In this document: positions 2,401 to 13,277 of the stretch, one piece after another
Layout: each line of letters opens with the position of its first letter
Position numbering within the stretch: position 1 is the first letter of the stretch
Origin: a virus
Taxonomy: Duplodnaviria > Heunggongvirae > Uroviricota > Caudoviricetes
IMG/VR virus record: IMGVR_UViG_2529292718_000021
Reading direction: 5' to 3' (one strand)
DNA: 13,463 bases
Program-made: the position numbers and the translations under genes
The notes under the pieces: generated by a model
What the model was told of the DNA's origin: nothing
What the model saw: the letters and a program-made list of their open reading frames with translations, nothing else
Database searches by the model: none

Positions 2401-2619
2401 ATGACAGCACATAACGCAGCGCAATCAGCACTTCCTACTACTGGATACATCCGCCGTTTTCGTATGCCGGAACTTCTGGGTGTTTCCATGCCAACCATTG
2501 ACCGCTGGGTTAAGAACGGCACGCTGCCGCGCCCAGTGAAACTCACCGATAACGTGACCGCCTTTGATGCGGTAGAGATTAATAACTGGCTGGCTGAGCG
2601 CCGGGGAAAGGTGGCGTAA
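2401..2619 (+). CDS. alpA: AlpA-family phage regulatory protein (excisionase-like HTH). Upstream in-frame starts at 2332 or 2356 are possible.
   Basis: Motif IRRFRMPELLGVSMPTIDRWVKNGTLPRPVKL...EINNWL matches the AlpA/Vis HTH pattern (E. coli AlpA: LRLPAV...TIYDWL...FPKP...W.E.EI.EWL). Position directly after int and a cargo gene is typical. Confidence 0.8.
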   Translation: MTAHNAAQSALPTTGYIRRFRMPELLGVSMPTIDRWVKNGTLPRPVKLTDNVTAFDAVEINNWLAERRGKVA

Positions 2620-3053
2620 TGAAAAAGAAAAACCGCCCCGTACAGCAGGCGGCTAACTCAGATATTCGCACGTCTGATATTACGCCGACCACCAGCCCGG
2701 TACAAGTACCTAAGCGTACCCCAAAGAAACACCGCGCCCGCGTCTATATGCTGCGTACTGGTATAGAGGGATGGACAGAAAATGACATTCTTCGCTACTG
2801 CCGTCTGTCTTCTGGTCGTAACTATGCAACAGAGTTAGAACGCCAGCTTGGAATCACTCTGGAGCGTATCGACGAAAAGAATCCTGATGGTATCGGAACA
2901 CACCTTCGCTACCGTTTCTCCTGCCGTGGTGATGTTCTGAAAGTGATCACTCATGTTAACCATCTTGCGAACATAAATGATCACAACGGACTTTCTCAGC
3001 AGGAAATTGCCGACATTCTGAAACTCTACCCGGACGCGTTTAACGCCGCCTAA
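2619..3053 (+). CDS. Hypothetical protein (144 aa), translationally coupled to alpA (TAATG overlap).
   Basis: ORF with SD-like AAGGTGG upstream; basic N-terminus; no family recognised by eye. Confidence 0.7.
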   Translation: MKKKNRPVQQAANSDIRTSDITPTTSPVQVPKRTPKKHRARVYMLRTGIEGWTENDILRYCRLSSGRNYATELERQLGITLERIDEKNPDGIGTHLRYRFSCRGDVLKVITHVNHLANINDHNGLSQQEIADILKLYPDAFNAA

Positions 3054-3065
3054 CGGAGACTGAAA

Positions 3066-3899
3066 ATGAACATCGAAAAAAGCAGATTAATTTCTGAGGC
3101 TGCCCCTCATCTGAACGCCTCTCTGGGCACAATTAACGGTAATGAATTTGCCGCAATTGTCCCGGTTATTCCTGGTCATATCGGTGGGCGTGAAACCAAT
3201 ATTGTTAGCGCAAAAGCGTTACACAAAGCGTTGGGCGTGGGAAAAGACTTCTCTACATGGATCACTGATCGCATCTCTGAATATGACTTCACCATTGGGC
3301 ACGATTACTCAGTCCATAAAACAATTTCCCCAAATTTGGGGAAAAGCCCGAATGGCGCGGCTTACAGCAAGATAAAGCACTCTGGCAGACCCGGCAAAGA
3401 CTATCTGTTAAGTGTCGGAATGGCGAAAGAACTGGCAATGATCGAACGCAATGATCAGGGTCGCGCTATCCGCCGTTATTTCATCCAGTGCGAGGAAGAA
3501 TTACAGCGTACCGTGCCTGAAATCGCCGCCCGCTATCGTCGCCAGCTAAAAGCCCGTATCAGTGCCGCAAACAACTTTAAGCCAATGTGCGATGCGCTGA
3601 ATATGGCCCGTGCCGAGCAGGGGAAAACGACGCAGCAACACCACTACACAAACGAGAGCAATATGATTTCTCGTATCGTTCTTGGTGGGCTAACTGCCAA
3701 GCAGTGGGCGCGGATAAATGGCTATTCTGGCGAACCTCGCGACCATATGAACGCAGAACAGCTTGAGCACCTCTCATATCTCGAAAGCACCAATATCACG
3801 TTAATTGATATGGGCATGGAATATGAGCAGCGCAAAGGAGAACTCACCCGCCTGTCGCAACGCTGGCTCGCCAAGCGTCTGGAGGTAGTCAATGTCTAA
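3066..3899 (+). CDS. Phage antirepressor (AntA/P22 Ant-like N-terminal domain, KilAC-type C-terminal region).
   Basis: N-terminal SAKALHKALGVGKDFSTWITDRISEYDFTIGHDY matches the AntA antirepressor signature; length 277 aa; RBS GGAGA upstream. Confidence 0.8.
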   Translation: MNIEKSRLISEAAPHLNASLGTINGNEFAAIVPVIPGHIGGRETNIVSAKALHKALGVGKDFSTWITDRISEYDFTIGHDYSVHKTISPNLGKSPNGAAYSKIKHSGRPGKDYLLSVGMAKELAMIERNDQGRAIRRYFIQCEEELQRTVPEIAARYRRQLKARISAANNFKPMCDALNMARAEQGKTTQQHHYTNESNMISRIVLGGLTAKQWARINGYSGEPRDHMNAEQLEHLSYLESTNITLIDMGMEYEQRKGELTRLSQRWLAKRLEVVNV

Positions 3900-4074
3900 G
3901 CCAACAGGAACACCACAACCACAAAAACGCTACAAAGATGCCCACGGAGCACTCGTTACTGTCGAAAGCGTGTCTCACAACCGAGTGACGTTTTATCGCG
4001 ACGGGTATCAATCGCCATGCGTACAACCGCTGGCACGTTTCATGAAGGAGTTCGCGGAGGTTAACAAATGCTAA
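3892..4074 (+). CDS. DUF4222-like small prophage protein (60 aa), start overlapping the antirepressor stop.
   Basis: Translation ...HGALVTVESVSHNRVTFYRDGYQSPCVQPLARF... fits the DUF4222 pattern as remembered; translational coupling. Confidence 0.6.
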   Translation: MSKPTGTPQPQKRYKDAHGALVTVESVSHNRVTFYRDGYQSPCVQPLARFMKEFAEVNKC

Positions 4075-4505
4075 CCGTCCAGAAGAAGACATTTTCACTG
4101 GCAGGTATGTCGCCAAAATCCAGCAATATGACGGCAAAGTCAGGCATTAATACAGCAGATACAAGCAAAGTTTATCATTTGCTGGTGGTCGGAACGGATG
4201 CCTTAACCATACCAGAAATCTCGGGCGATGATATTAGCATTGAGAAGGTCAGCGGCTGCGCCAGAAAATTTCTGGTCGTAGATGATGTCTTCCGCTCGTG
4301 TAGTGACTCCACAAAAACATTCGTCCACGTGCGTGACGTTAACGAAATGAGCGCGATGTACTGTGCATCTGGTGCTTCCAATACTGAGTTTTCGGAGTCC
4401 ATAAAAAAGAGCTTGCCGTTATGCGGCAACACGGTTTATGGTTATAAGGCACCTCATAAAACGGGTGCCGGGATTAGGACCCCGCAGGCAATCGAGGCGA
4501 TACAT

Positions 4506-4526
4506 GACGCGCCAGCGTCTTTTTTT
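4506..4526 (+). terminator. Candidate intrinsic terminator inside the immunity-like leader upstream of the Icd-like gene.
   Basis: Stem GACGC (4506-4510) / GCGTC (4515-4519), loop GCCA, followed by seven T at 4520-4526. Confidence 0.4.
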
Positions 4527-4534
4527 GTATCGGC

Positions 4535-4665
4535 GCACACGCACACCTTATCAATGGTGGGCTGTATGGGGCTGACTTCGGTCAGGCTGGTTTCCTTGAT
4601 TGCCAGTAGTCCTAACCCTGTACAGTCCACCGCCAGCGAGCTTAGGACCTCCGGCGGTGGCTATA
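4535..4665 (+). ncRNA. Candidate structured leader / antisense-RNA-type immunity element (C4/CI-like), tentative.
   Basis: UUCG-tetraloop hairpin CTGAC-TTCG-GTCAG at 4572-4585; 8-bp complementary pair CCACCGCC (4627-4634) / GGCGGTGG (4653-4660) immediately before the Icd-like RBS. In P1 and P4 the icd/immunity genes are preceded by a processed antisense RNA. Coordinates approximate. Confidence 0.25.
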
Positions 4666-4690
4666 AACCATCAATCAAGGAGGCTGCCAC

Positions 4691-4885
4691 ATGCTGGCTA
4701 CTACCCCTACCCAAAAACCGCAATTTATCTGGATTATCGCCGCAGTTCGCCGCGATTGCCCGACAATTACCGCCAAAATTCATCATATTGCTGCCGAGTC
4801 TGAACGCGATGCTCGCCGTTCTCTGGTGCGCGATCACGTCTGCTTTTTTGCTGGTCGTATCCGCATGGAGGTGGCACATGATTAA
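4691..4885 (+). CDS. icd: Host cell division inhibitor Icd-like protein (64 aa).
   Basis: Perfect SD AAGGAGG 7 nt upstream; translation QFIWIIAAVRR...ESERDARRSLV..FFAGRI fits the Icd-like pattern (F.W...A.RR...ARR.L...FAAR) as remembered. Confidence 0.75.
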   Translation: MLATTPTQKPQFIWIIAAVRRDCPTITAKIHHIAAESERDARRSLVRDHVCFFAGRIRMEVAHD

Positions 4886-5096
4886 AACCTACGATGTGCA
4901 TATGGATCCCCTCGAACGCACAAGCCAGATCATCACACTGACAGAAGTGATTAACGACATTCTGGTGAGCAACTCTCCCTCACGAGACGAAAGACTGAAG
5001 GCGTTACTCGCGATATTGGATCTCGCCGTTCGTGACGTTCATTTCCTGCTGGAAGGTGGCGAAATGCCAGTAAAAACGGGGGCAACCAATGAATAA
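4878..5096 (+). CDS. Hypothetical small protein (72 aa), overlapping the icd stop by 8 nt.
   Basis: SD GGAGGTGG upstream of ATG 4878; helical, protein-like translation. Confidence 0.6.
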   Translation: MIKTYDVHMDPLERTSQIITLTEVINDILVSNSPSRDERLKALLAILDLAVRDVHFLLEGGEMPVKTGATNE

Positions 5097-5283
5097 CTCA
5101 ATTAATACCCCTCGCCTTACGTCCGCACTTCAATTAATCGAGCAAGCAGCGGCTGTCCTGGTTGCTGTCAGTCTTTCGGCTGAAGAAATGGACGCTGCTG
5201 ATGTCGTGGATGCGATTAAAGCGTGCTCATCTTTGGTTAACGATGCCCGTGCAGAGCTGGTAATTCTTGGTGGTGAAAAATGA
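5089..5283 (+). CDS. Hypothetical small protein (64 aa), translationally coupled.
   Basis: Start overlaps the preceding stop; G-rich SD-like tract upstream. Confidence 0.6.
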   Translation: MNNSINTPRLTSALQLIEQAAAVLVAVSLSAEEMDAADVVDAIKACSSLVNDARAELVILGGEK

Positions 5284-5543
5284 ATATCAACTTAATTTAT
5301 CGTCATCCGTGTGAGCTGGAAATTGAATCATTGCTGGGGCGTGAAGAGCCATATCCAGACACATTTACTCCCGCAGATTGCGCGACTGAACGGCTTACCA
5401 GAGCGCGCACAGGTCTGGTTCATGTGATGAATGAGATTATTCCCTCGGTGGGAGGGGAACAGGCGACAGTAATCAATAGCTGGCTACAAAAAGTTACCTC
5501 CCTGATAGATATCAGTTTAATCGATGTGGAGAGTGCGAAATGA
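5280..5543 (+). CDS. Hypothetical small protein (87 aa), ATGA start/stop overlap.
   Basis: SD GGTGGTG upstream; coupled to neighbours. Confidence 0.65.
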   Translation: MNINLIYRHPCELEIESLLGREEPYPDTFTPADCATERLTRARTGLVHVMNEIIPSVGGEQATVINSWLQKVTSLIDISLIDVESAK

Positions 5544-5761
5544 CCAACATCCAGCTCATTGAAGCGCAATGTCGCATCGAACAGGTTCAGACTGTTTTAG
5601 GGTTCTGGCTTGAAGGGGCCGGCTCAAGCAACAGAGACAAGTTAATGATTGGCGCGGTTATGTCACTACTCAATGGCGTACCAGAAGCTATTCAGGAAGC
5701 GGACGAATTGTTGGGCAAATATGAGTTACAGAATCATTCAGGCGAGGCGAAACATGAATAA
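5540..5761 (+). CDS. Hypothetical small protein (73 aa), ATGA overlap.
   Basis: SD GGAGAG upstream; coupled to neighbours. Confidence 0.65.
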   Translation: MTNIQLIEAQCRIEQVQTVLGFWLEGAGSSNRDKLMIGAVMSLLNGVPEAIQEADELLGKYELQNHSGEAKHE

Positions 5762-5839
5762 TTTCTTAACTTTCCATGCAGAAGCAACGCCTGACGGCGT
5801 AAACATCATGTATGGCAGCAGAAATCAGAGAGGTAAAAC

Positions 5840-7180: not shown

Positions 7181-7354
7181 ATGGCTATTTCAGTAAAGCC
7201 AGTATTGATAAGTGAGAAGCAAATGGAAGCGATAAAGAAAATTCAGGAGGAGCAGCGTAAAAAATCAGAGGTAGGAGTTGCGCCAACGATCCACGAAATT
7301 GCTCGGGGATTAATGGATAAGGCGCTGGCTTACACTTTAACTGGACGTGGGTAA
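7181..7354 (+). CDS. Small protein (57 aa), putative ribbon-helix-helix-like DNA-binding protein; first gene of the operon.
   Basis: Strong RBS; N-terminal beta-strand-then-helix pattern (ISVKPVLISEKQMEAIKKI) is consistent with an RHH fold. Fold assignment is a guess. Confidence 0.55.
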   Translation: MAISVKPVLISEKQMEAIKKIQEEQRKKSEVGVAPTIHEIARGLMDKALAYTLTGRG

Positions 7355-7358
7355 ATTT

Positions 7359-8702
7359 ATGGCTACGTGGCAACAGGGTATTAATTCTGGTGGTTTTCTG
7401 GCTGGCATCGGTGCGCAAAATGAGAATGCGCCAAAGGCAAGCGACATTAACGCAACGCTTGGTCTGATCCGCGAAAACAATGAACTGGCTCGCTCAGGTG
7501 CAAATAACGTTGCTCTGACAGGTCTTCGTGGTCTGGCTGGAGTTGCTGACATTTATAAGCAGCAGCAACAGCAGGAACGTAAAGCGGCATTCCAGAAAGG
7601 TTATGCAGATGCTTATGCGTCCGGTGACAGGGAGCAGATGCGTAATCTTATTACAGCATTCCCAGAAGAGTTTGAGGAAGTCCGTAAAGGGATGAGTTAT
7701 GTCGATGATGCTCAAAGGGATGATTATGGCAATCTGGCGCTCAAAGCACAGGTAGCCTCATCGCTTGGTCAGGGCGCATTTGGCAGGTTCATGATGGATA
7801 ATGAGCAGGAGATGCGTCGTTTAGGTATCCCTCCAGAAACTATTGCTGAAATGCAGGTTAATGACCCGCAGGGCTTCCAGCATTTCGCAGGTAATCTGGC
7901 GCTGTTTTCTCTCGGTCATGAGAAGTATTTCGATATCAAAGATCAAATGGAAGGTCGTCGACTTGAGCAAGGGCGACTGGATGAAAGTATGCGTCAGGCT
8001 GACATGGAGAACGCGAGAGGATGGGCAAATATCCAGAACGCTCAACTAGACAGGGCTCAGCGAGCACAAATTCACTCAGATGAGATGGGATTGAAGCTAA
8101 TGGAGCTGGGGCAAAAAGGTAAGCCGTCAGCAGACTTAATTAAGGGATTAAATTCTGACATTACCAATTTTGGCAAAAATTATAACTCTGTCAGAGCGGC
8201 GGCAAACTCTCTGCAAGCCCTTAGCAAGGTAAATACTGGCGCTGCCCAACTTGGGATTATCTTCAACTACATGAAATCTCTTGACCCGCAGTCAGTCGTT
8301 CGTGAAGGCGAACAGGTTCAGGTAATGCGGTCTGATGGCATATGGGGACAAATCAAAGGATACATAGACCAGCTTAATGCTGGAAACGGCCTGTCGCAGG
8401 AGGCAAAGGATAACATTGTTAACGCCGCAAAAATCAACGCCAATGCTATGGGGCAGCAGTTTAACCAGCAGGTTGACGAGTATCTCGATACATATGGAGA
8501 AACTATTCCTCAGGGGCTAAGAAAAAGCCTTGAAAGAAGGAAAGCGAAGCTATTTGACGATGTTTCCGGGCAGCCTACATCACAGGCTGGCACTGGACAG
8601 GCAAAAGCGGCAACCGGAGGAATATCAGAAGGCGCAACGGCAACCAACCCTAAAACTGGTCAGAAAATCATTTACAGGAACGGAAAATGGCAGCAAATGT
8701 AA
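7359..8702 (+). CDS. Large hypothetical protein (447 aa from ATG 7359; 451 aa if GTG 7347 is used). Gln/Asn/Ala/Gly-rich, predicted coiled-coil, no catalytic motif seen.
   Basis: Long ORF; poly-Q tract (QQQQQ); no Walker A, no HxH or other enzymatic signature by eye. Confidence 0.8.
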   Translation: MATWQQGINSGGFLAGIGAQNENAPKASDINATLGLIRENNELARSGANNVALTGLRGLAGVADIYKQQQQQERKAAFQKGYADAYASGDREQMRNLITAFPEEFEEVRKGMSYVDDAQRDDYGNLALKAQVASSLGQGAFGRFMMDNEQEMRRLGIPPETIAEMQVNDPQGFQHFAGNLALFSLGHEKYFDIKDQMEGRRLEQGRLDESMRQADMENARGWANIQNAQLDRAQRAQIHSDEMGLKLMELGQKGKPSADLIKGLNSDITNFGKNYNSVRAAANSLQALSKVNTGAAQLGIIFNYMKSLDPQSVVREGEQVQVMRSDGIWGQIKGYIDQLNAGNGLSQEAKDNIVNAAKINANAMGQQFNQQVDEYLDTYGETIPQGLRKSLERRKAKLFDDVSGQPTSQAGTGQAKAATGGISEGATATNPKTGQKIIYRNGKWQQM

Positions 8703-10804
8703 TCTTACCGGAAGGTTTTGTGCTCGATGAACAACCTGATAACTCACAGTTTCCTGATAGTTCACAGCTTCCTGATGGTTTTGTGCTTGATGCCCAACCA
8801 GAACAGCAGCAATCACCTTTGGTTTCACCAGAGGAAAATTCCAGACAGGAAAATGTTGTTAATAATGCTAACGGTTTCGACCGTTTTATGTATGGCGTTC
8901 TCAGTGGATTGATGGATGTTGGTAAAGGTGTTGGCCTGTTTCAGGATATGACACCAGAAGAGCAAGCCGCAATTCAGTCTCTACAGCAGAAGTTAGCGGC
9001 AAAACCATCAACCGCACAAGATGTTGGTGAGTTCGTTGGACAAGCAGCGCCATTTGTTAGTGGTGGTGGGATTATTTCTCAGGTTCCCAAAGGGGCGGCA
9101 AGACTGGCTGCCGCCGCAGGGCTTGGGGCTGGAGAAGGGGCTATTGTAGCCAATGGAACAAATAGCGATGTTGCTTCCGGCGCTGCTATTGGCGCTGTGG
9201 CTGGCCCTGTAGCCGAACTTGCTGGCCCTGCAATTAATAAAATAGCTGGGAAATTAACCAAGAAGAATGTTTCTTCGATTCCAGATATTGAGGGGATTAC
9301 TCCTACCGAAGAGAAAATTCGTAAGTTATCTGCACAAGGCAACCCAAATCTTGCCTCTTCGCTTGAAGGGCTAGATCTAAAACCTCAGAAAGAAATTGTT
9401 GAGGCTGCAAATAGGCTTCATGTTGATTCAGTTCTTCCTTCTCATTTATCAGGAAATGAGCAATACCAAGCTGTAGAGCAAGCCCTAAAGTCACGGACAG
9501 GATCAGCGTTAAAAGCTCAAGAAGATAAAGCAATAAGCGAATTAGCCTCTAGTGCTGGCAAGATAATCGATGATGTTGCTGGTGCGCCAGATGCGTTAGC
9601 TATGAGCGAAAAATATATTTATCAGATAAATAGTAGAATGGAAGCACTAAAAAACCGTAGTGATCAGTTATATAAACGTGTTGATTCCGCTCTATCACCA
9701 AGAACAAAAGTCGAAGCAAATAACACAAGCACTATGCTGGAAAAAATCGCTGATGATTTAGGAGGGTGGGATAATCTTGACCCAATAGAAAAGCGAGTTT
9801 TTACAGCAATAAACCCCGGCCCAGATAGCATCCTAACGTATGCAAATTTAAACAGGCAAAGGCGTTTAGTTGGTGATGCCCTAAATAAAAAGCAGGGGCC
9901 ATACAAAGATGCTGATAAAGAAGCGCTATCAAGACTATATGGAGCTTTAGCTGAAGACCAAAAATCTGTCTTATCCAATACTGGATACTTGCGAGATTTC
10001 GAAGTCGCACAACGCCTTGTAGCTATGAGAAAAAACTTAGAAAGGCAAATGGTAAATCTTCGCGGGAAAACACTTAATGGGGATATAGCGTATAAAGTAA
10101 CGAATTCTCTTCAATCTATGGCAAAAGGTGATGCGAGAGGGTTTCGTGAGATTATGCAAAATACTCCATCAAGAACATTGCGAAGGGAGCTAGTAGGAAC
10201 AGCATTAAGAGATATGCTTTCCTCTGGGAAGCGTGGGGCCGACTTTAATCCATCTGGCTTTGCAGATTGGTGGCAAAACTTGCAACACAGTGGACAGCTA
10301 AAGACTTTGGCTGAACATTTGCCAAAAGAAACAATGAGCGGACTATATGATGTATACAAAGTTGCCAGAGCAATAAAAAATGCTAAAGCGCATGAAATAT
10401 CTACTGGTAAGCTGAATGAGTTTGTAAACAGATTTAATCGGGTAACAGCTCCATACGAACTAGCAGCAAAACACATTCAAAAAATAGGCACGATGGTACG
10501 CGCTCATTTTGGATCGCTTGGAGCCATTGCTGGGGCTGATATTGGAGCAAGATTGGCGAGTAAAGCTCGATTAGCTGGTGGAGCAGGGGCGGCTGATGCT
10601 GCGGATAAATTAATTGCCTCGCCAGCCTTCCAGAGCGCAGTAAAAAATCTACACGGAAAAGCGCCTGGGCACATTGTTGATTCACGTATCAGGCGCTCCC
10701 CTCAATGGAAGAGTTTTTTTAACTCTCTTCCTGAACAGGAAAAACGGACCATCGCCAGACTGGGCATCATTACTTGGCTATCTAATGATCCAGATAATGA
10801 CTAG
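8687..10804 (+). CDS. Large hypothetical protein (705 aa), start overlapping the upstream gene by 16 nt. Has an N-terminal tandem peptide repeat and Gly/Ala-zipper-like segments; the gene is compositionally mosaic.
   Basis: Repeat LPEGFVLDEQP / LPDGFVLDAQP (DNA repeat GGTTTTGTGCT[C/T]GATG at 8714-8729 and 8777-8792, 63-bp period); segments such as AAAAGLGAGEGAIVANG and GSLGAIAGADIGARLA; the 5' third is near backbone GC while the 3' ~1.5 kb is clearly AT-richer. Confidence 0.85.
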   Translation: MAANVILPEGFVLDEQPDNSQFPDSSQLPDGFVLDAQPEQQQSPLVSPEENSRQENVVNNANGFDRFMYGVLSGLMDVGKGVGLFQDMTPEEQAAIQSLQQKLAAKPSTAQDVGEFVGQAAPFVSGGGIISQVPKGAARLAAAAGLGAGEGAIVANGTNSDVASGAAIGAVAGPVAELAGPAINKIAGKLTKKNVSSIPDIEGITPTEEKIRKLSAQGNPNLASSLEGLDLKPQKEIVEAANRLHVDSVLPSHLSGNEQYQAVEQALKSRTGSALKAQEDKAISELASSAGKIIDDVAGAPDALAMSEKYIYQINSRMEALKNRSDQLYKRVDSALSPRTKVEANNTSTMLEKIADDLGGWDNLDPIEKRVFTAINPGPDSILTYANLNRQRRLVGDALNKKQGPYKDADKEALSRLYGALAEDQKSVLSNTGYLRDFEVAQRLVAMRKNLERQMVNLRGKTLNGDIAYKVTNSLQSMAKGDARGFREIMQNTPSRTLRRELVGTALRDMLSSGKRGADFNPSGFADWWQNLQHSGQLKTLAEHLPKETMSGLYDVYKVARAIKNAKAHEISTGKLNEFVNRFNRVTAPYELAAKHIQKIGTMVRAHFGSLGAIAGADIGARLASKARLAGGAGAADAADKLIASPAFQSAVKNLHGKAPGHIVDSRIRRSPQWKSFFNSLPEQEKRTIARLGIITWLSNDPDND

Positions 10805-11680: not shown

Positions 11681-11703
11681 TCGACAGCATACACATTGGA
11701 TAT

Positions 11704-11904
11704 TCATTTTGTGACCAATGCGATAAGTAGCGGGATAAGAATTGATAAAATCAACAGGACGATGATCCACTTCTGATTCTCGTCCATCTTATCTGCTAGG
11801 CGACGCTCCATTCCGTGCATATCACCGCGAATGGCAATCATCTCATTGCGAACATCCGAGAAGTGGTTGGCTTGATGTTCAATGTGTGGCGTTCTGCCTT
11901 TCAT
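11704..11904 (-). CDS. Small membrane protein (66 aa), N-terminal charged/coiled region plus a C-terminal TM helix; XhlA-like prophage protein (tentative).
   Basis: C-terminal WIIVLLILSILIPLLIALV hydrophobic helix; architecture resembles short XhlA-family proteins as remembered. Confidence 0.55.
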   Translation of the reverse strand: MKGRTPHIEHQANHFSDVRNEMIAIRGDMHGMERRLADKMDENQKWIIVLLILSILIPLLIALVTK

Positions 11905-11983
11905 TCCTGATCCTCACCTATCGTCACCACCTGCTGGTGTATAAAGGTATTGGCCCAAGCAGCTTTCCAATGGGCACTCATGT

Positions 11984-12439
11984 TTATACGCTGACCTTAC
12001 AATCAATCACCGCTTTTAACTTTTCAGCATTGCTTCCCTGACGCTTCCACGCGCTGTAAATATCTTTATCCCACGCTTTACCAGCTTTTGTTTGATAGCC
12101 TGCTTCATTGATCCGTTCAGCTATCACACGCCCATTATCAAATCCCTGTCGGATGGTATCGGCAATGATCTTTATAACTGCCGTTTCGTTATATGGCTTT
12201 GGTGGGATGTTCGGCTTTCCGGCAATAAGCGACGCAGCGGCTTTTTCCATGCGCTCCACCAGCCCAAGCATTCGTGAATCAATAGACTTTTTCGGCTGTC
12301 CCAGCTTCATGCGAATCGCATCAACAAGCCAGGAGGTTTTATCTCCTCCAGAAGCGAGAACAGACCGATTAAACTCATCCTGCAATTCAGATGGGATGCG
12401 GAACGCGACCAGATTAGATTTGCTCATTGCAAAGACCAT
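11984..12439 (-). CDS. Ribbon-helix-helix (Arc/Mnt/CopG-like) DNA-binding protein with a C-terminal extension; putative repressor. Alternative start at 12427.
   Basis: N-terminal NLVAFRIPSELQDEFNRSVLASGGDKTSWLVDAIRMKL follows the Arc/Mnt RHH pattern (compare P22 Mnt FNFRMPMEVREKL...); palindromic operator-like site immediately upstream. Confidence 0.7.
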   Translation of the reverse strand: MVFAMSKSNLVAFRIPSELQDEFNRSVLASGGDKTSWLVDAIRMKLGQPKKSIDSRMLGLVERMEKAAASLIAGKPNIPPKPYNETAVIKIIADTIRQGFDNGRVIAERINEAGYQTKAGKAWDKDIYSAWKRQGSNAEKLKAVIDCKVSV

Positions 12440-12456
12440 ATCAGTGAGTAATATCC

Positions 12457-12475
12457 ATACAGTATACCACTGTAT
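12457..12475. promoter_or_regulatory. Palindrome ATACAGT-ATACC-ACTGTAT upstream of the RHH gene; candidate operator.
   Basis: 7-bp arms are exact reverse complements; a related ACACTGTTATAC follows at 12477-12490. Confidence 0.45.
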
Positions 12476-12541
12476 AACACTGTTATACGCTCAAATATCA
12501 GCCAGAAAATAACGGACCAATCACAAATCTATCGCTGTGTT

Positions 12542-12592
12542 GTTGGTTCAGAGCTGGGCTGTGTTGGTTCAAAATGAGTTGATGTTGGTTCA
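12542..12592. repeat. Three direct GTTGGTTCA iterons spaced exactly 21 bp apart.
   Basis: Copies at 12542-12550, 12563-12571 and 12584-12592. Confidence 0.7.
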
Positions 12593-12635
12593 ATATTTCA
12601 GAAAAAACACAATAAAAACAACAATCTTTACAAAT

Positions 12636-12662
12636 TGAACCAACTGAACCAACTGAACCAAC
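12636..12662. repeat. Three tandem TGAACCAAC 9-mers (reverse complement of the upstream iterons), separated from them by an AT-rich spacer and overlapping the -35 region of the perC-like gene.
   Basis: Copies at 12636-12644, 12645-12653 and 12654-12662; AT-rich 12593-12635. Confidence 0.7.
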
Positions 12663-12685
12663 ACCTTTTTGCTTATCTATATAAT
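12654..12685 (+). promoter_or_regulatory. Candidate promoter of the PerC-like gene: consensus -10 TATAAT at 12680-12685, -35 embedded in the last TGAACCAAC repeat.
   Basis: TATAAT hexamer 14 nt upstream of the ATG at 12699, SD GAGAGG in between; non-canonical spacer. Confidence 0.35.
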
Positions 12686-12698
12686 CTGAGAGGCAGAA

Positions 12699-12980
12699 AT
12701 GATAAGGGACAGGAAAGCTGAAGAGCTGGAGTCAAAAGGGCTATACCGGAGAGCTGCCGCACGATGGATGGAAGTCATGCTGTTATGCACCGAGGACGAT
12801 GATCGGGAATGGATAAAGCGCCGCCGTGAAACGTGTCTGGAGAACGTGAAGCGCCCGCCCGTGAAGGTTGAGGAATTTGGCGACCTGCATAAAGCTGTTA
12901 CCGAAACGCAACACCGCATGGGGATAGCGCAACCGAACGGTAACGCCTTCCGGTTAAATGGCGGCAAGAGGCAAAGGTAG
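12699..12980 (+). CDS. perC: PerC-family transcriptional activator (93 aa).
   Basis: N-terminal MIRDRKAEELESKGLYRRAAARWMEVM matches the conserved PerC/Pch N-terminus as remembered. Confidence 0.8.
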   Translation: MIRDRKAEELESKGLYRRAAARWMEVMLLCTEDDDREWIKRRRETCLENVKRPPVKVEEFGDLHKAVTETQHRMGIAQPNGNAFRLNGGKRQR

Positions 12981-12984
12981 ACCA

Positions 12985-13006
12985 CCAGAGGGAAATCATC
13001 CTCTGG
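12985..13006 (+). terminator. Hairpin CCAGAGG-N8-CCTCTGG downstream of perC; weak candidate terminator.
   Basis: 7-bp perfect stem, followed by moderately U-rich CTGGCGGTTTCTGGTATTT. Confidence 0.35.
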
Positions 13007-13029
13007 CTGGCGGTTTCTGGTATTTCGGG

Positions 13030-13050
13030 ACAAGTACGCGCGCGCGTAGC
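13030..13050. repeat. Second well-conserved copy of the ACAAGTACGCGCGCG(CG)TAGC element, containing the perfect 14-bp palindrome TACGCGCGCGCGTA.
   Basis: Matches 11661-11680 including flanking bases. Confidence 0.6.
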
Positions 13051-13277
13051 ACCCAATCGGTGAGGAAATAGCGGCGACCTGAATGGTCAAAATCACAACG
13101 CAGCTATCCCCGTAAGCAGCGCTTAACGGAATAGCAGTAACCTGAATCCAGTGGGGAGGGGGTAGTCAAATCTCTACAGCCCTGACTATCCGGGACTGCC
13201 CGCCCCATCGTTTTTTTATACCCGCAAAAAATGAAATTTAATCCGGGCGTGTTTCATCCTTCCAGAGGGTATGACGT

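Follow-up and report, generated by a model that had tools for sequence, protein, structure and literature searches.

A probable P4-like RNA immunity switch beneath a long open reading frame in an EcCIMP1-like satellite

The long open reading frame (ORF) at 4068-5096 of the analyzed viral DNA (the window, a single stretch of 13,463 nucleotides) raises the question of whether this region encodes a protein or regulatory RNAs. The frame comprises 342 codons and, like all features described below, lies on the plus strand. It begins with an ATG at 4068, which overlaps the stop codon of an upstream DUF4222 gene (ATGCTAA, 4068-4074), and the Shine-Dalgarno sequence GGAGG, read directly from the DNA, is located 7 nt before this ATG (4056-4060). 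The first-pass annotation of the locus was right about this start and about the passage of the frame through a terminator-like hairpin with a run of seven T (4506-4526). It also placed two downstream genes in other frames, which holds for the first gene and not for the second. The first, an icd-like gene for a cell-division inhibitor homologous to P4 Kil (4691-4885), is matched by NCBIfam NF033153 (phage_ICD_like) with 71.7 bits, compared with 76.1 bits for P4 Kil, and is out of frame with the long ORF ((4691-4068) mod 3 = 2). The second, a small ORF at 4878-5096 with its own GGAGG (4867), shares the frame of the long ORF, as 4878-4068 is divisible by 3, and supplies its stop codon; it has no separate annotation in RefSeq relatives and no family match in Pfam, NCBIfam, or PHROGs. 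The same annotation suggested an RNA immunity leader of the P1 c4-icd-ant or P4 seqA-CI-seqC kind, and matches to the C4 and IsrK RNA families together with covarying motifs support this suggestion. Very probably, the locus is an RNA-based immunity (quiescence) switch of a P4-like or PICI satellite, with the design known from P4 and from the Gifsy-1 isrK locus, and icd is the first gene under its predicted control.

One of the two RNA matches is that to the C4 antisense RNA. An Infernal scan with the C4 model, named in advance as a check of the RNA reading, yielded a full-length match at 4550-4637 (Rfam RF01695, model positions 1-87 of 87) whose score, 80.2 bits, is well above the gathering score of 45; the same model scores 74.9 bits on the P4 CI RNA. 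The C4/CI-type RNA consists of a basal stem (4555-4571 with 4616-4632), a UUCG hairpin (4572-4585), a second hairpin (4586-4607), and a GCCA tail (4632-4635). The UUCG-tetraloop hairpin noticed at first reading is indeed present, as CUGAC-UUCG-GUCAG. The acceptor-like stem followed by GCCA is consistent with the excision predicted for this family, in which RNase P would act at the 5' end and release a stable RNA of about 77 nt from a longer transcript. Two recognition elements are found here, the b' loop UUUCCUUGAUUG (4591-4602) in hairpin 2 and the a' segment GUCCUAA (4609-4615). The folding z-score of the C4 region is -4.4.

Upstream of C4, separated by a spacer of 24 nt, lies a small RNA of the IsrK/seqA type (4449-4526). 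Rfam RF01394 (isrK) matches 4449-4525 over its full length with 63 bits, against a gathering score of 50, and also matches the P4 seqA region and the Gifsy-1 IsrK. The RNA contains hairpin 1 (4449-4468), hairpin 2 (4469-4484), and a terminator, GACGC-GCCA-GCGTC (4506-4519) followed by T7 (4520-4526), which was also found independently by a terminator scan. Thus, the hairpin and T-run that first drew attention to the region are the IsrK terminator. Taken alone, IsrK is not unusually stable (folding z-score -1.25), so the case for it relies on the covariance model and on comparison rather than on folding energy. The loop of hairpin 2 carries segment a1 (UUAGGAC, 4474-4480), a decoy or target complementary to a', and segment b1 (GGCAAUCGAGG, 4487-4497) can pair with the b' loop, one of the pairs being G-U. 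The dedicated Rfam model for such sites, RF03163 (c4-a1b1), reaches only 14.8 bits in the window; this low score is not counted against a1 and b1, which were identified directly and lie in a stretch already covered by isrK.

A promoter-like site, the putative counterpart of P4 PLE, precedes IsrK at 4413-4442. It includes a -35 box TTGCCG (4413-4418), an 18-nt spacer, and a -10 box TATGGT (4437-4442), with the predicted start at about G4449. The site came from comparison of sequence types and was not reported by a generic sigma-70 promoter scan. In most of the 25 listed types, TTGCC-like -35 and TATAGT/TATGGT-like -10 boxes occur at an equal distance from the IsrK 5' end; P4 PLE (TTGCCT ... TATAGT) is among them.

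The recognition segments have counterparts in the icd leader. The exact complements of a' are a1 inside IsrK and a2 (UUAGGAC, 4642-4648) downstream; similarly, b' is complementary to b1 inside IsrK and to b2 (CAAUCAAGGAGGCU, 4672-4685), which covers the icd Shine-Dalgarno sequence AAGGAGG. Covariation was analyzed in 29 sequence types from P4, Gifsy-1-like phages, and satellites. The whole structure is paired at 95.5%, compared with 34-47% in slid controls, and none of 500 shuffles reached the observed pairing values. The three C4 helices are paired at 99.6-100%, with two-sided changes at 13 of 27 pairs (7, 5, and 1 per helix). The a'/a2 helix is paired at 94% and shows two-sided changes at six of its seven pairs; for b'/b2 the corresponding values are 84.5%, a lower bound because MAFFT set the b2 segments of one group of sequences (L008) out of register, and seven of ten pairs. 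An exact a1 complement lies upstream in 25 of 27 types, compared with 9 of 648 combinations in the cross-type control. The recognition segments fall into 16 a' and 22 b' types, each with its own matching a1/a2 and b1/b2. In a relative that is 98% identical (L003), a1, a', and a2 have all changed in concert. Experimental data point to the same contacts: the Gifsy-1 pairs G28-C162 and G31-C159, proven by compensatory mutation (PMC4825925), map onto a1-a' positions.

Another pairing connects C4 to the leader. An alternative helix (4627-4660) is formed by CCACCGCC (4627-4634) and GGCGGUGG (4653-4660), with a2 in its loop, and is mutually exclusive with the C4 basal stem. It is paired at 97%, with two-sided changes at four of eight positions, whereas sliding one partner by 1-3 columns reduces pairing to 27-57%. 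The helix has a folding z-score of -2.7 and is also found in P4 and Gifsy-1. The complementary 8-mers CCACCGCC/GGCGGTGG pointed out in the first-pass annotation are thus real and beyond chance, as they covary across the 29 types. The copy search that it proposed found each 8-mer once in the window, at 4627-4634 and 4653-4660, respectively. Their coordinates are one base off those implied earlier. The leader alone (4638-4700) has no significant structure (z-score -0.15).

By analogy with P1, P4, and Gifsy-1, these elements may operate as follows. The putative promoter within the long ORF (4413-4418, 4437-4442) would initiate transcripts at about 4449, and the terminator at 4506-4526 would end most of them, yielding an IsrK/seqA RNA of about 77 nt. 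Read-through RNA would hold C4/CI (4550-4637), which is probably excised as a stable RNA of about 80 nt, given that the tRNA-like stem with a GCCA tail is an RNase P substrate in P1 and P4. Pairing of the C4 a' and b' segments with a2 and b2 of the leader would cover the icd ribosome-binding site and block icd translation; this block, in turn, is expected to cause Rho-dependent termination and keep the downstream operon silent, as in P1 and P4. The IsrK segments a1 and b1 may serve as target copies that bind the a'/b' face of C4, either in cis, within the read-through RNA, or in trans, as an anti-antisense RNA, so that the switch would be tuned. Upon induction by a helper, the upstream operon (alpA ... 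AntA-DUF4222) would be transcribed, and ribosomes coupled from the DUF4222 gene would cross IsrK, C4, and the leader, melting the terminator and the RNA folds and shielding the transcript from Rho. Transcription from the upstream promoter would thereby be insensitive to immunity, and the long ORF, whose translation is suggested by its homologues, would act as the counterpart of P4 eta.

The long ORF itself allows a different reading, in which it encodes a genuine regulatory protein of the "Ash family" (Bro network) and the RNA matches are secondary or coincidental. Its good Shine-Dalgarno sequence and the overlap of its start with the upstream stop codon agree with this reading, as do the label "ash family protein" carried by 342-aa products in RefSeq relatives and the match to Pfam PF10554 (Phage_ASH) with 54 bits against a gathering cutoff of 26. 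Moreover, Gifsy-1 orf45, in the same frame, is reported to be translated (PMC4825925). However, the Pfam match is restricted to amino acids 124-219, that is, nucleotides 4437-4724, and so coincides with IsrK, C4, and the leader. In P4, PF10554 falls on the obsolete "cI protein" ORF over the CI RNA, and the immunity factor there is the RNA (PMC10111431). The C4 region has no codon periodicity (column entropy by codon position 0.65/0.73/0.70), and amino-acid identity in the ORF frame (0.54) does not exceed that in the other two frames (0.56 and 0.52). Thus, neither a third-position excess nor elevated ORF-frame identity, the two marks of protein-level selection looked for, was found in the RNA part of the ORF. 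In addition, the coordinated a/b switches alter the peptide while the RNA pairings are kept, and the ORF runs across the conserved icd gene in a different reading frame. We therefore regard a dedicated Ash-family protein as very unlikely. Since the PF10554 similarity is confined to the RNA genes and lacks a protein-level signature, the ORF is read as an RNA-spanning, eta-like frame; over the RNA genes it probably for the most part mirrors IsrK/seqA and C4/CI and is the counterpart of P4 eta. The translation was initially described as rich in serine and threonine, which proved to be only a mild tendency (18.7% overall, 23.6% in the N-terminal part).

The openness of the frame bears on both the protein reading and its opposite, a functionless by-product. 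A stop-free frame across 4449-5093 arose in only 3 of 20000 shuffles, which is improbable enough to count in favor of a protein. None of the 10 close loci interrupts the frame (283-355 codons), and a length difference of 39 nt among them is in-frame and located in the spacer. Across C4 it is open in 49 of 53 unique regions, compared with 9 and 1 for the other two frames; these regions, collected by a fixed sequence pattern, are mostly of the P4 type, so the frame statistics lack phylogenetic independence. In public protein sets, other alleles of this ORF end after 155, about 167, or 210-216 codons or carry poly-A frameshifts, so a frame that extends over the full module is not a universal feature.

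The N-terminal part of the ORF (4068-4436, 123 codons) evolves rapidly. It has 51 variable sites in 369 nt, distributed over codon positions as 19/14/18, and is three to eight times as variable as the flanking genes, with a flat codon-position profile. Strict neutrality, suggested by these counts, was dropped as an explanation: codon differences comprise 93 nonsynonymous and 35 synonymous changes, and dN/dS ranges from 0.38 to 0.92 (Nei-Gojobori), indicating weak or relaxed constraint. Values below one agree with a protein; the constraint is weak at best. No family match was found for this part in Pfam, NCBIfam, or PHROGs, and in a word-indexed homology search its homologues were limited to close E. 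coli and Salmonella relatives. The AlphaFold2 model has a pLDDT of 34.7, which, given the shallow alignment, is uninformative rather than negative. The lack of a family and of a confident fold weighs against an Ash-family protein and fits a third possibility, namely that these 123 codons are what is left of a gene that decayed and whose stop codon was lost when an IsrK-C4 cassette recombined in at about 4437-4450, leaving the long frame as a functionless by-product.

Such a recombination would explain why similarity to phage IsrK-C4 cassettes begins abruptly at about 4450, and the high variability, the flat codon-position profile, and the shortened (155-216 codons) and frameshifted alleles are in line with decay. 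On the other hand, 381 nt compared across 10 loci at up to 8% divergence contain no indels and no stop codons, the spacer length difference preserves the frame, and most lineages of the module have kept it open. Stop-free frames were also rare among the shuffles. A functional spanning ORF also has a precedent in P4, where eta extends across the immunity RNAs and its translation from the upstream promoter overrides termination (PMC10111431). Hence a mere remnant seems rather unlikely. The decayed-gene option of the first-pass annotation can be kept only in part, as the ORF is probably not simply decayed but rather the counterpart of P4 eta.

The eta-like reading can be extended further, with due caution. 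We tentatively suggest, as a possibility somewhat short of an even chance, that PF10554 and the "ash family protein" label, which this ORF carries in many enterobacterial genomes, denote no protein domain but a translation shadow of IsrK/seqA and C4/CI, and that the frame is an eta-type "transit ORF." Such a frame would be kept open in most lineages solely to let ribosomes from a helper-induced upstream operon traverse and override the RNA switch, and selection would act on the act of translation and not on the peptide. If this is true, the a/b segments form a combinatorial barcode of 16 a' and 22 b' types, with triplets switched between 98%-identical elements, which would sort co-resident satellites and prophages into classes of mutual immunity.

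The host element of the module is an EcCIMP1-like PICI satellite. The segment 2609-5820 of the window shares 98% identity with an island located at proA/tRNA-Thr (L001), and the closest relative of the element in the window sits at another chromosomal site, yicC-dinD. AlpA acts as the master regulator of the related PICI EcCIMP1, where a helper induces it (PMC11773190). In relatives, the operon downstream continues to a replicase of the DUF5906 or TOPRIM/DUF927 type; the window lacks 3.27 kb present in them, including the replicase gene. As the replicase is deleted, the module here may no longer serve a working satellite.

The neighborhood also bears on the third alternative, a P1-type immI operon (c4-icd-ant) in which C4 would control an antirepressor and, through it, the induction of a helper or resident prophage. 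Both C4 and icd are present, the same RNA pair controls the antirepressor AnrP in Gifsy-1, and an AntA-family gene is located nearby (3066-3899). That gene, however, lies upstream of the RNA module and outside its control, and the five ORFs between icd and 6577 contain no Ant, KilA, Bro, or other antirepressor domains by Pfam, NCBIfam, and PHROGs. The downstream operon of the relatives leads to a replicase in the P4 fashion, and the module lies within a spanning ORF beside an alpA operon, again as in P4. With no downstream ant and the module within a long ORF, the architecture is P4-like rather than P1-like, and control of an antirepressor appears improbable. A P4-like quiescence switch remains the preferred reading of the locus.

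The system as such is already known from P1, P4, Gifsy-1, and PICIs, and C4 and isrK matches in Gram-negative PICIs were noted in a 2023 survey (PMC10111431). The biological gain is accordingly small: a common E. coli EcCIMP1-like island carries a switch of the P4/P1/Gifsy-1 type, as noted earlier. The practical value lies in annotation, since an RNA region is labelled as a protein in RefSeq and PF10554 is misplaced for P4 epsilon. The 342-aa call swallows the icd gene in some RefSeq records and is associated with a pseudogene mark in others. The real P4 epsilon protein, which PF10554 does not cover, belongs to a different family, and at least one satellite-detection pipeline has taken PF10554 as the P4 epsilon profile (PMC8628076). 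The covarying a/b triplets, in turn, offer a simple sorting of elements into predicted immunity types.

Four known systems can be compared with the locus. The C4 antisense RNA of P1/P7 immI is the founding member of the Rfam family, and it reportedly blocks icd translation through a2/b2 over the ribosome site (Citron and Schuster, 1990, 1992; Heinrich et al., 1994). In the immI order (c4 - icd - ant1/2), an icd homologue is the first gene there too; the difference is the downstream ant gene, which has no equivalent here. The E. coli PICI EcCIMP1, mobilised by the P22-like phage Kapi1, resembles by description island L001, with which it has in common the gene set (integrase, AlpA-type regulator, antirepressor, "Ash family protein," primase, and DNA-transfer genes) and the integration site at proA/tRNA-Thr (PMC11773190). 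It differs from the element in the window, which has no replicase and whose closest relative is at yicC-dinD, and the EcCIMP1 paper does not mention IsrK or C4 RNAs (PMC11773190).

The Salmonella Gifsy-1 locus (isrK - orf45(STnc1160) - anrP) has the same order of IsrK followed by a C4-family RNA; RF01695 also matches STnc1160/orf45, the a1-a' pairing is proven there at the same positions (Hershko-Shalev et al., 2016, PMC4825925), and orf45 is in the same frame as the long ORF. Gifsy-1 differs in that control falls on an antirepressor gene, coupled directly to orf45 through an ATGA overlap, that icd and the long upstream ORF are absent, and that the host element is a lambdoid prophage and not a satellite.

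In P4, the order is PLE promoter, seqA, CI, seqC, and kil, all nested in eta, and Rho-dependent termination downstream is prevented by translation (PMC10111431). Several details differ. The IsrK-C4 spacer is about 107 nt in P4 and 24 nt here; a' is UUCUCAC in P4 and GUCCUAA here; and eta, of 197 codons, abuts the alpA homologue, whereas other genes, including AntA and DUF4222, lie between alpA and the ORF here. The replicase is of the DUF5906 type in the relatives and deleted in the window. The analogy to eta is imperfect: eta and kil are read in one frame and end at a common stop codon, whereas the ORF here differs in frame from icd and takes its stop codon from 4878-5096. The design is nevertheless the same: both loci are matched by RF01695 and RF01394, have the promoter motif at an equal distance from the 5' end of the seqA/IsrK hairpins, and show an arrangement of a1/b1, a'/b', and a2/b2 and an alternative helix that are identical in kind. 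In both, the first regulated gene is Icd-like (Kil in P4), the RNAs lie within a long ORF that is coupled to an upstream gene belonging to an alpA-type operon, and the host is a satellite element with an integrase and alpA.

The region upstream of the icd-like gene is supported as a P4-type immunity module lying within an eta-like ORF. A scan of the entire window against Rfam at gathering thresholds gave three matches in total: full-length C4 antisense RNA (4550-4637, 80.2 bits, threshold 45), full-length isrK RNA (4449-4525, 63 bits, threshold 50), and int-alpA RNA (RF02996, 1329-1395, 66 bits) directly 3' of the integrase ORF (1-1320). The first-pass annotation had suggested an RNA immunity leader of the P1 or P4 kind; its observation is real, and its reading can be sharpened to the P4-type arrangement. 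In folding, C4 is also much more stable than its shuffles (z-score -4.4). The IsrK terminator is the terminator-like hairpin (4506-4519) with its T7 run that the first-pass annotation had pointed out, and the next gene after the RNAs is the icd-like one (4691-4885; NCBIfam NF033153, 71.7 bits). A promoter motif, TTGCCG-18 nt-TATGGT, is found 5' of IsrK at 4413-4442. On the minus strand, the hairpin TTGCCGCATAACGGCAA followed by a T-run forms a terminator-like site (4413-4429) that overlaps the -35 element of this inferred promoter; a plus-strand A6 run (4405-4410) precedes it.

C4 exposes two recognition segments, b' (4591-4602, in the loop of hairpin 2) and a' (4609-4615). Exact complements of a' are a2 (UUAGGAC, 4642-4648) in the icd leader and a1 (4474-4480) in the loop of IsrK hairpin 2. 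The complements of b' are b2 (CAAUCAAGGAGGCU, 4672-4685), which includes the icd Shine-Dalgarno sequence, and b1 (4487-4497) within IsrK. The previously noticed 8-mers CCACCGCC (4627-4634) and GGCGGTGG (4653-4660) are indeed mutually complementary, and each occurs once in the window. Their helix, which holds a2 in its loop, and the C4 basal stem are mutually exclusive.

The pairing was examined comparatively with a search pattern that was built from invariant C4 positions and put no constraint on the stems, any target, a' or most of b'. It matched 84 stretches in IMG/VR; adding the window, P4 and E. coli relatives to the 80 listed as loci gave 53 unique regions, in which 16 a' types and 22 b' types form 29 combinations. 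Every type has its own downstream complement at a fixed position. The own complement is also found upstream, inside the IsrK hairpin: 25 of 27 types have an exact a1, vs. 9 of 648 cross-type controls. When the 29 types were aligned with MAFFT, pairing reached 99.6-100% in the C4 helices, 94% in a'/a2 and at least 84.5% in b'/b2, where misalignment of one group depresses the value; both partners have changed at 6 of the 7 a'/a2 pairs and at 7 of the 10 b'/b2 pairs. Values as high as these arose in none of 500 shuffles, and pairing fell to 34-47% once the partner was slid by 1-3 columns. The 8-mer helix covaries as well: it is 97% paired, 4 of its 8 pairs have changed on both sides, and its slid controls reach 27-57%. 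In a 98%-identical relative, a1, a' and a2 are all altered jointly: one patch (window 4571-4650) swaps C4 hairpin 1, a' and a2, and a separate second patch swaps a1 in IsrK. Together the two patches amount to a coordinated switch of the predicted immunity type.

The long ORF starts, as the first-pass annotation described, at ATG 4068 behind a GGAGG Shine-Dalgarno sequence (4056-4060) and runs for 342 codons to 5096, through the IsrK terminator hairpin, a UUCG hairpin and both complementary 8-mers. Its translation is only mildly biased to Ser/Thr (18.7%). Two downstream genes had been placed in other frames; this holds for icd, while 4878-5096 is in the same frame and supplies the stop codon of the long ORF. 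RefSeq annotation of the locus is inconsistent (L001, the island at proA/tRNA-Thr, 9465-9994; L003, the 98%-identical relative, 1677-2705; L089, the closest full relative, NZ_OZ547150, 5569-6597): an Icd-like protein stands beside a pseudo 'ash family protein, missing C-terminus' in one record, and in others icd is unannotated because a 342-aa 'ash family protein' covers it. The Pfam PF10554 (Phage_ASH) match, aa 124-219 (nt 4437-4724), spans IsrK, C4 and the leader and nothing beyond. Across the 29 types, the C4 region lacks codon periodicity (entropy 0.65/0.73/0.70), and the ORF frame, at 0.54 amino-acid identity, does not exceed the other two (0.56, 0.52), which argues that the 'Ash' similarity, judged from these alignments, is a shadow of RNA conservation. 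In P4 (L004 8168-8584 and 7888-8175), PF10554 likewise matches an obsolete ORF that overlies the CI RNA and was once labelled 'cI gene product', whereas epsilon proper is PF25738; a satellite survey took PF10554 as the epsilon profile (PMC8628076).

The N-terminal 123 codons gave no family match in profile searches of Pfam, NCBIfam and PHROGs and no confident predicted fold (pLDDT 34.7), and a word-indexed homology search found relatives in E. coli and Salmonella only. Variable sites make up 13.8% of this part vs. 1.7-3.9% of the flanking genes in the same loci; its codon-position profile is flat (19/14/18), and its dN/dS is 0.38-0.92. Nevertheless, the frame stays open in each of the 10 close loci (283-355 codons); there are no indels over 381 nt, and a 39-nt spacer difference is in frame. 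Through C4 it is open in 49 of the 53 unique regions (other frames, 9 and 1), and only 3 of 20,000 shuffles leave it stop-free. This fits an eta-like ORF for which the act of translation, not the product, matters, although the long ORF does not share the frame of icd, and alleles terminating after 155-216 codons, as well as poly-A frameshift variants, exist. Among database alleles (P0007, P0018, P0022 and P0024), some lose the frame at the A6 run or close to it and stop after 139-179 codons; others shift frame in the IsrK terminator loop and stop at 155 codons.

Window 2609-5820 shares 98% identity with the proA/tRNA-Thr island, whose gene set and integration site are those described for the PICI EcCIMP1; the closest full relative of the window's element is integrated at yicC-dinD. 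A clean deletion sets the window apart from the latter (L089, from E. coli): the 3.27 kb lost (L089 7322-10588; junction about 5811-5820, flanks overlapping by 10 bp) held the DUF5906 replicase, a 200-aa gene and a small ORF. This truncates the operon under the control of the switch, and the window's island is probably replication-defective. About 1.3 kb at 11681-13016, with minus-strand ORFs 11984-12439 and 12677-13096, has no counterpart at the matching place in L089 and is therefore an insertion or replacement. The satellite-like island also contains P22-type DNA ejection genes (7347-10804), namely a PF16928 injectosome translocase (7347-8702, 247 bits) followed by a 705-aa ORF; EcCIMP1 is drawn with matching 'DNA transfer' genes.

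Many lambdoid phages, Stx-converting ones among them, carry the 240-bp IsrK-C4 cassette (window 4450-4689) at 89-93% identity; it is present in 239 phage records and in Stx2 phage F039 (3000-3187). The phage copies precede varied genes, and the RNAs are annotated in only 2 of 30 listed records.

Systems of this kind, and their occurrence in PICIs, are already known from published work; the remaining interest lies in the 'Ash family protein' annotation artefact, the alternative helix that covaries, and the N-terminal frame that is hypervariable yet open. In P4, the C4 model matches CI RNA (74.9 bits), the isrK model matches the seqA region (60.8 bits), and Kil is Icd-like (76.1 bits). The distance from the P4 promoter PLE (TTGCCT ... 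TATAGT) to the hairpins equals that in the window, as in most other types listed. P4 CI is encoded inside eta, which is translated only from the upstream late promoter, coupled to an alpA homologue, and whose translation blocks termination; the Rfam C4 and isrK profiles find CI/seqA relatives in Gram-negative PICIs (PMC10111431). In Gifsy-1, both models match the 'orf45'/STnc1160 region and IsrK, already named a structural homologue of P4 SeqA by Hershko-Shalev et al. (PMC4825925), and the pairs G28-C162 and G31-C159, proven there by compensatory mutation, fall exactly on a1-a'.
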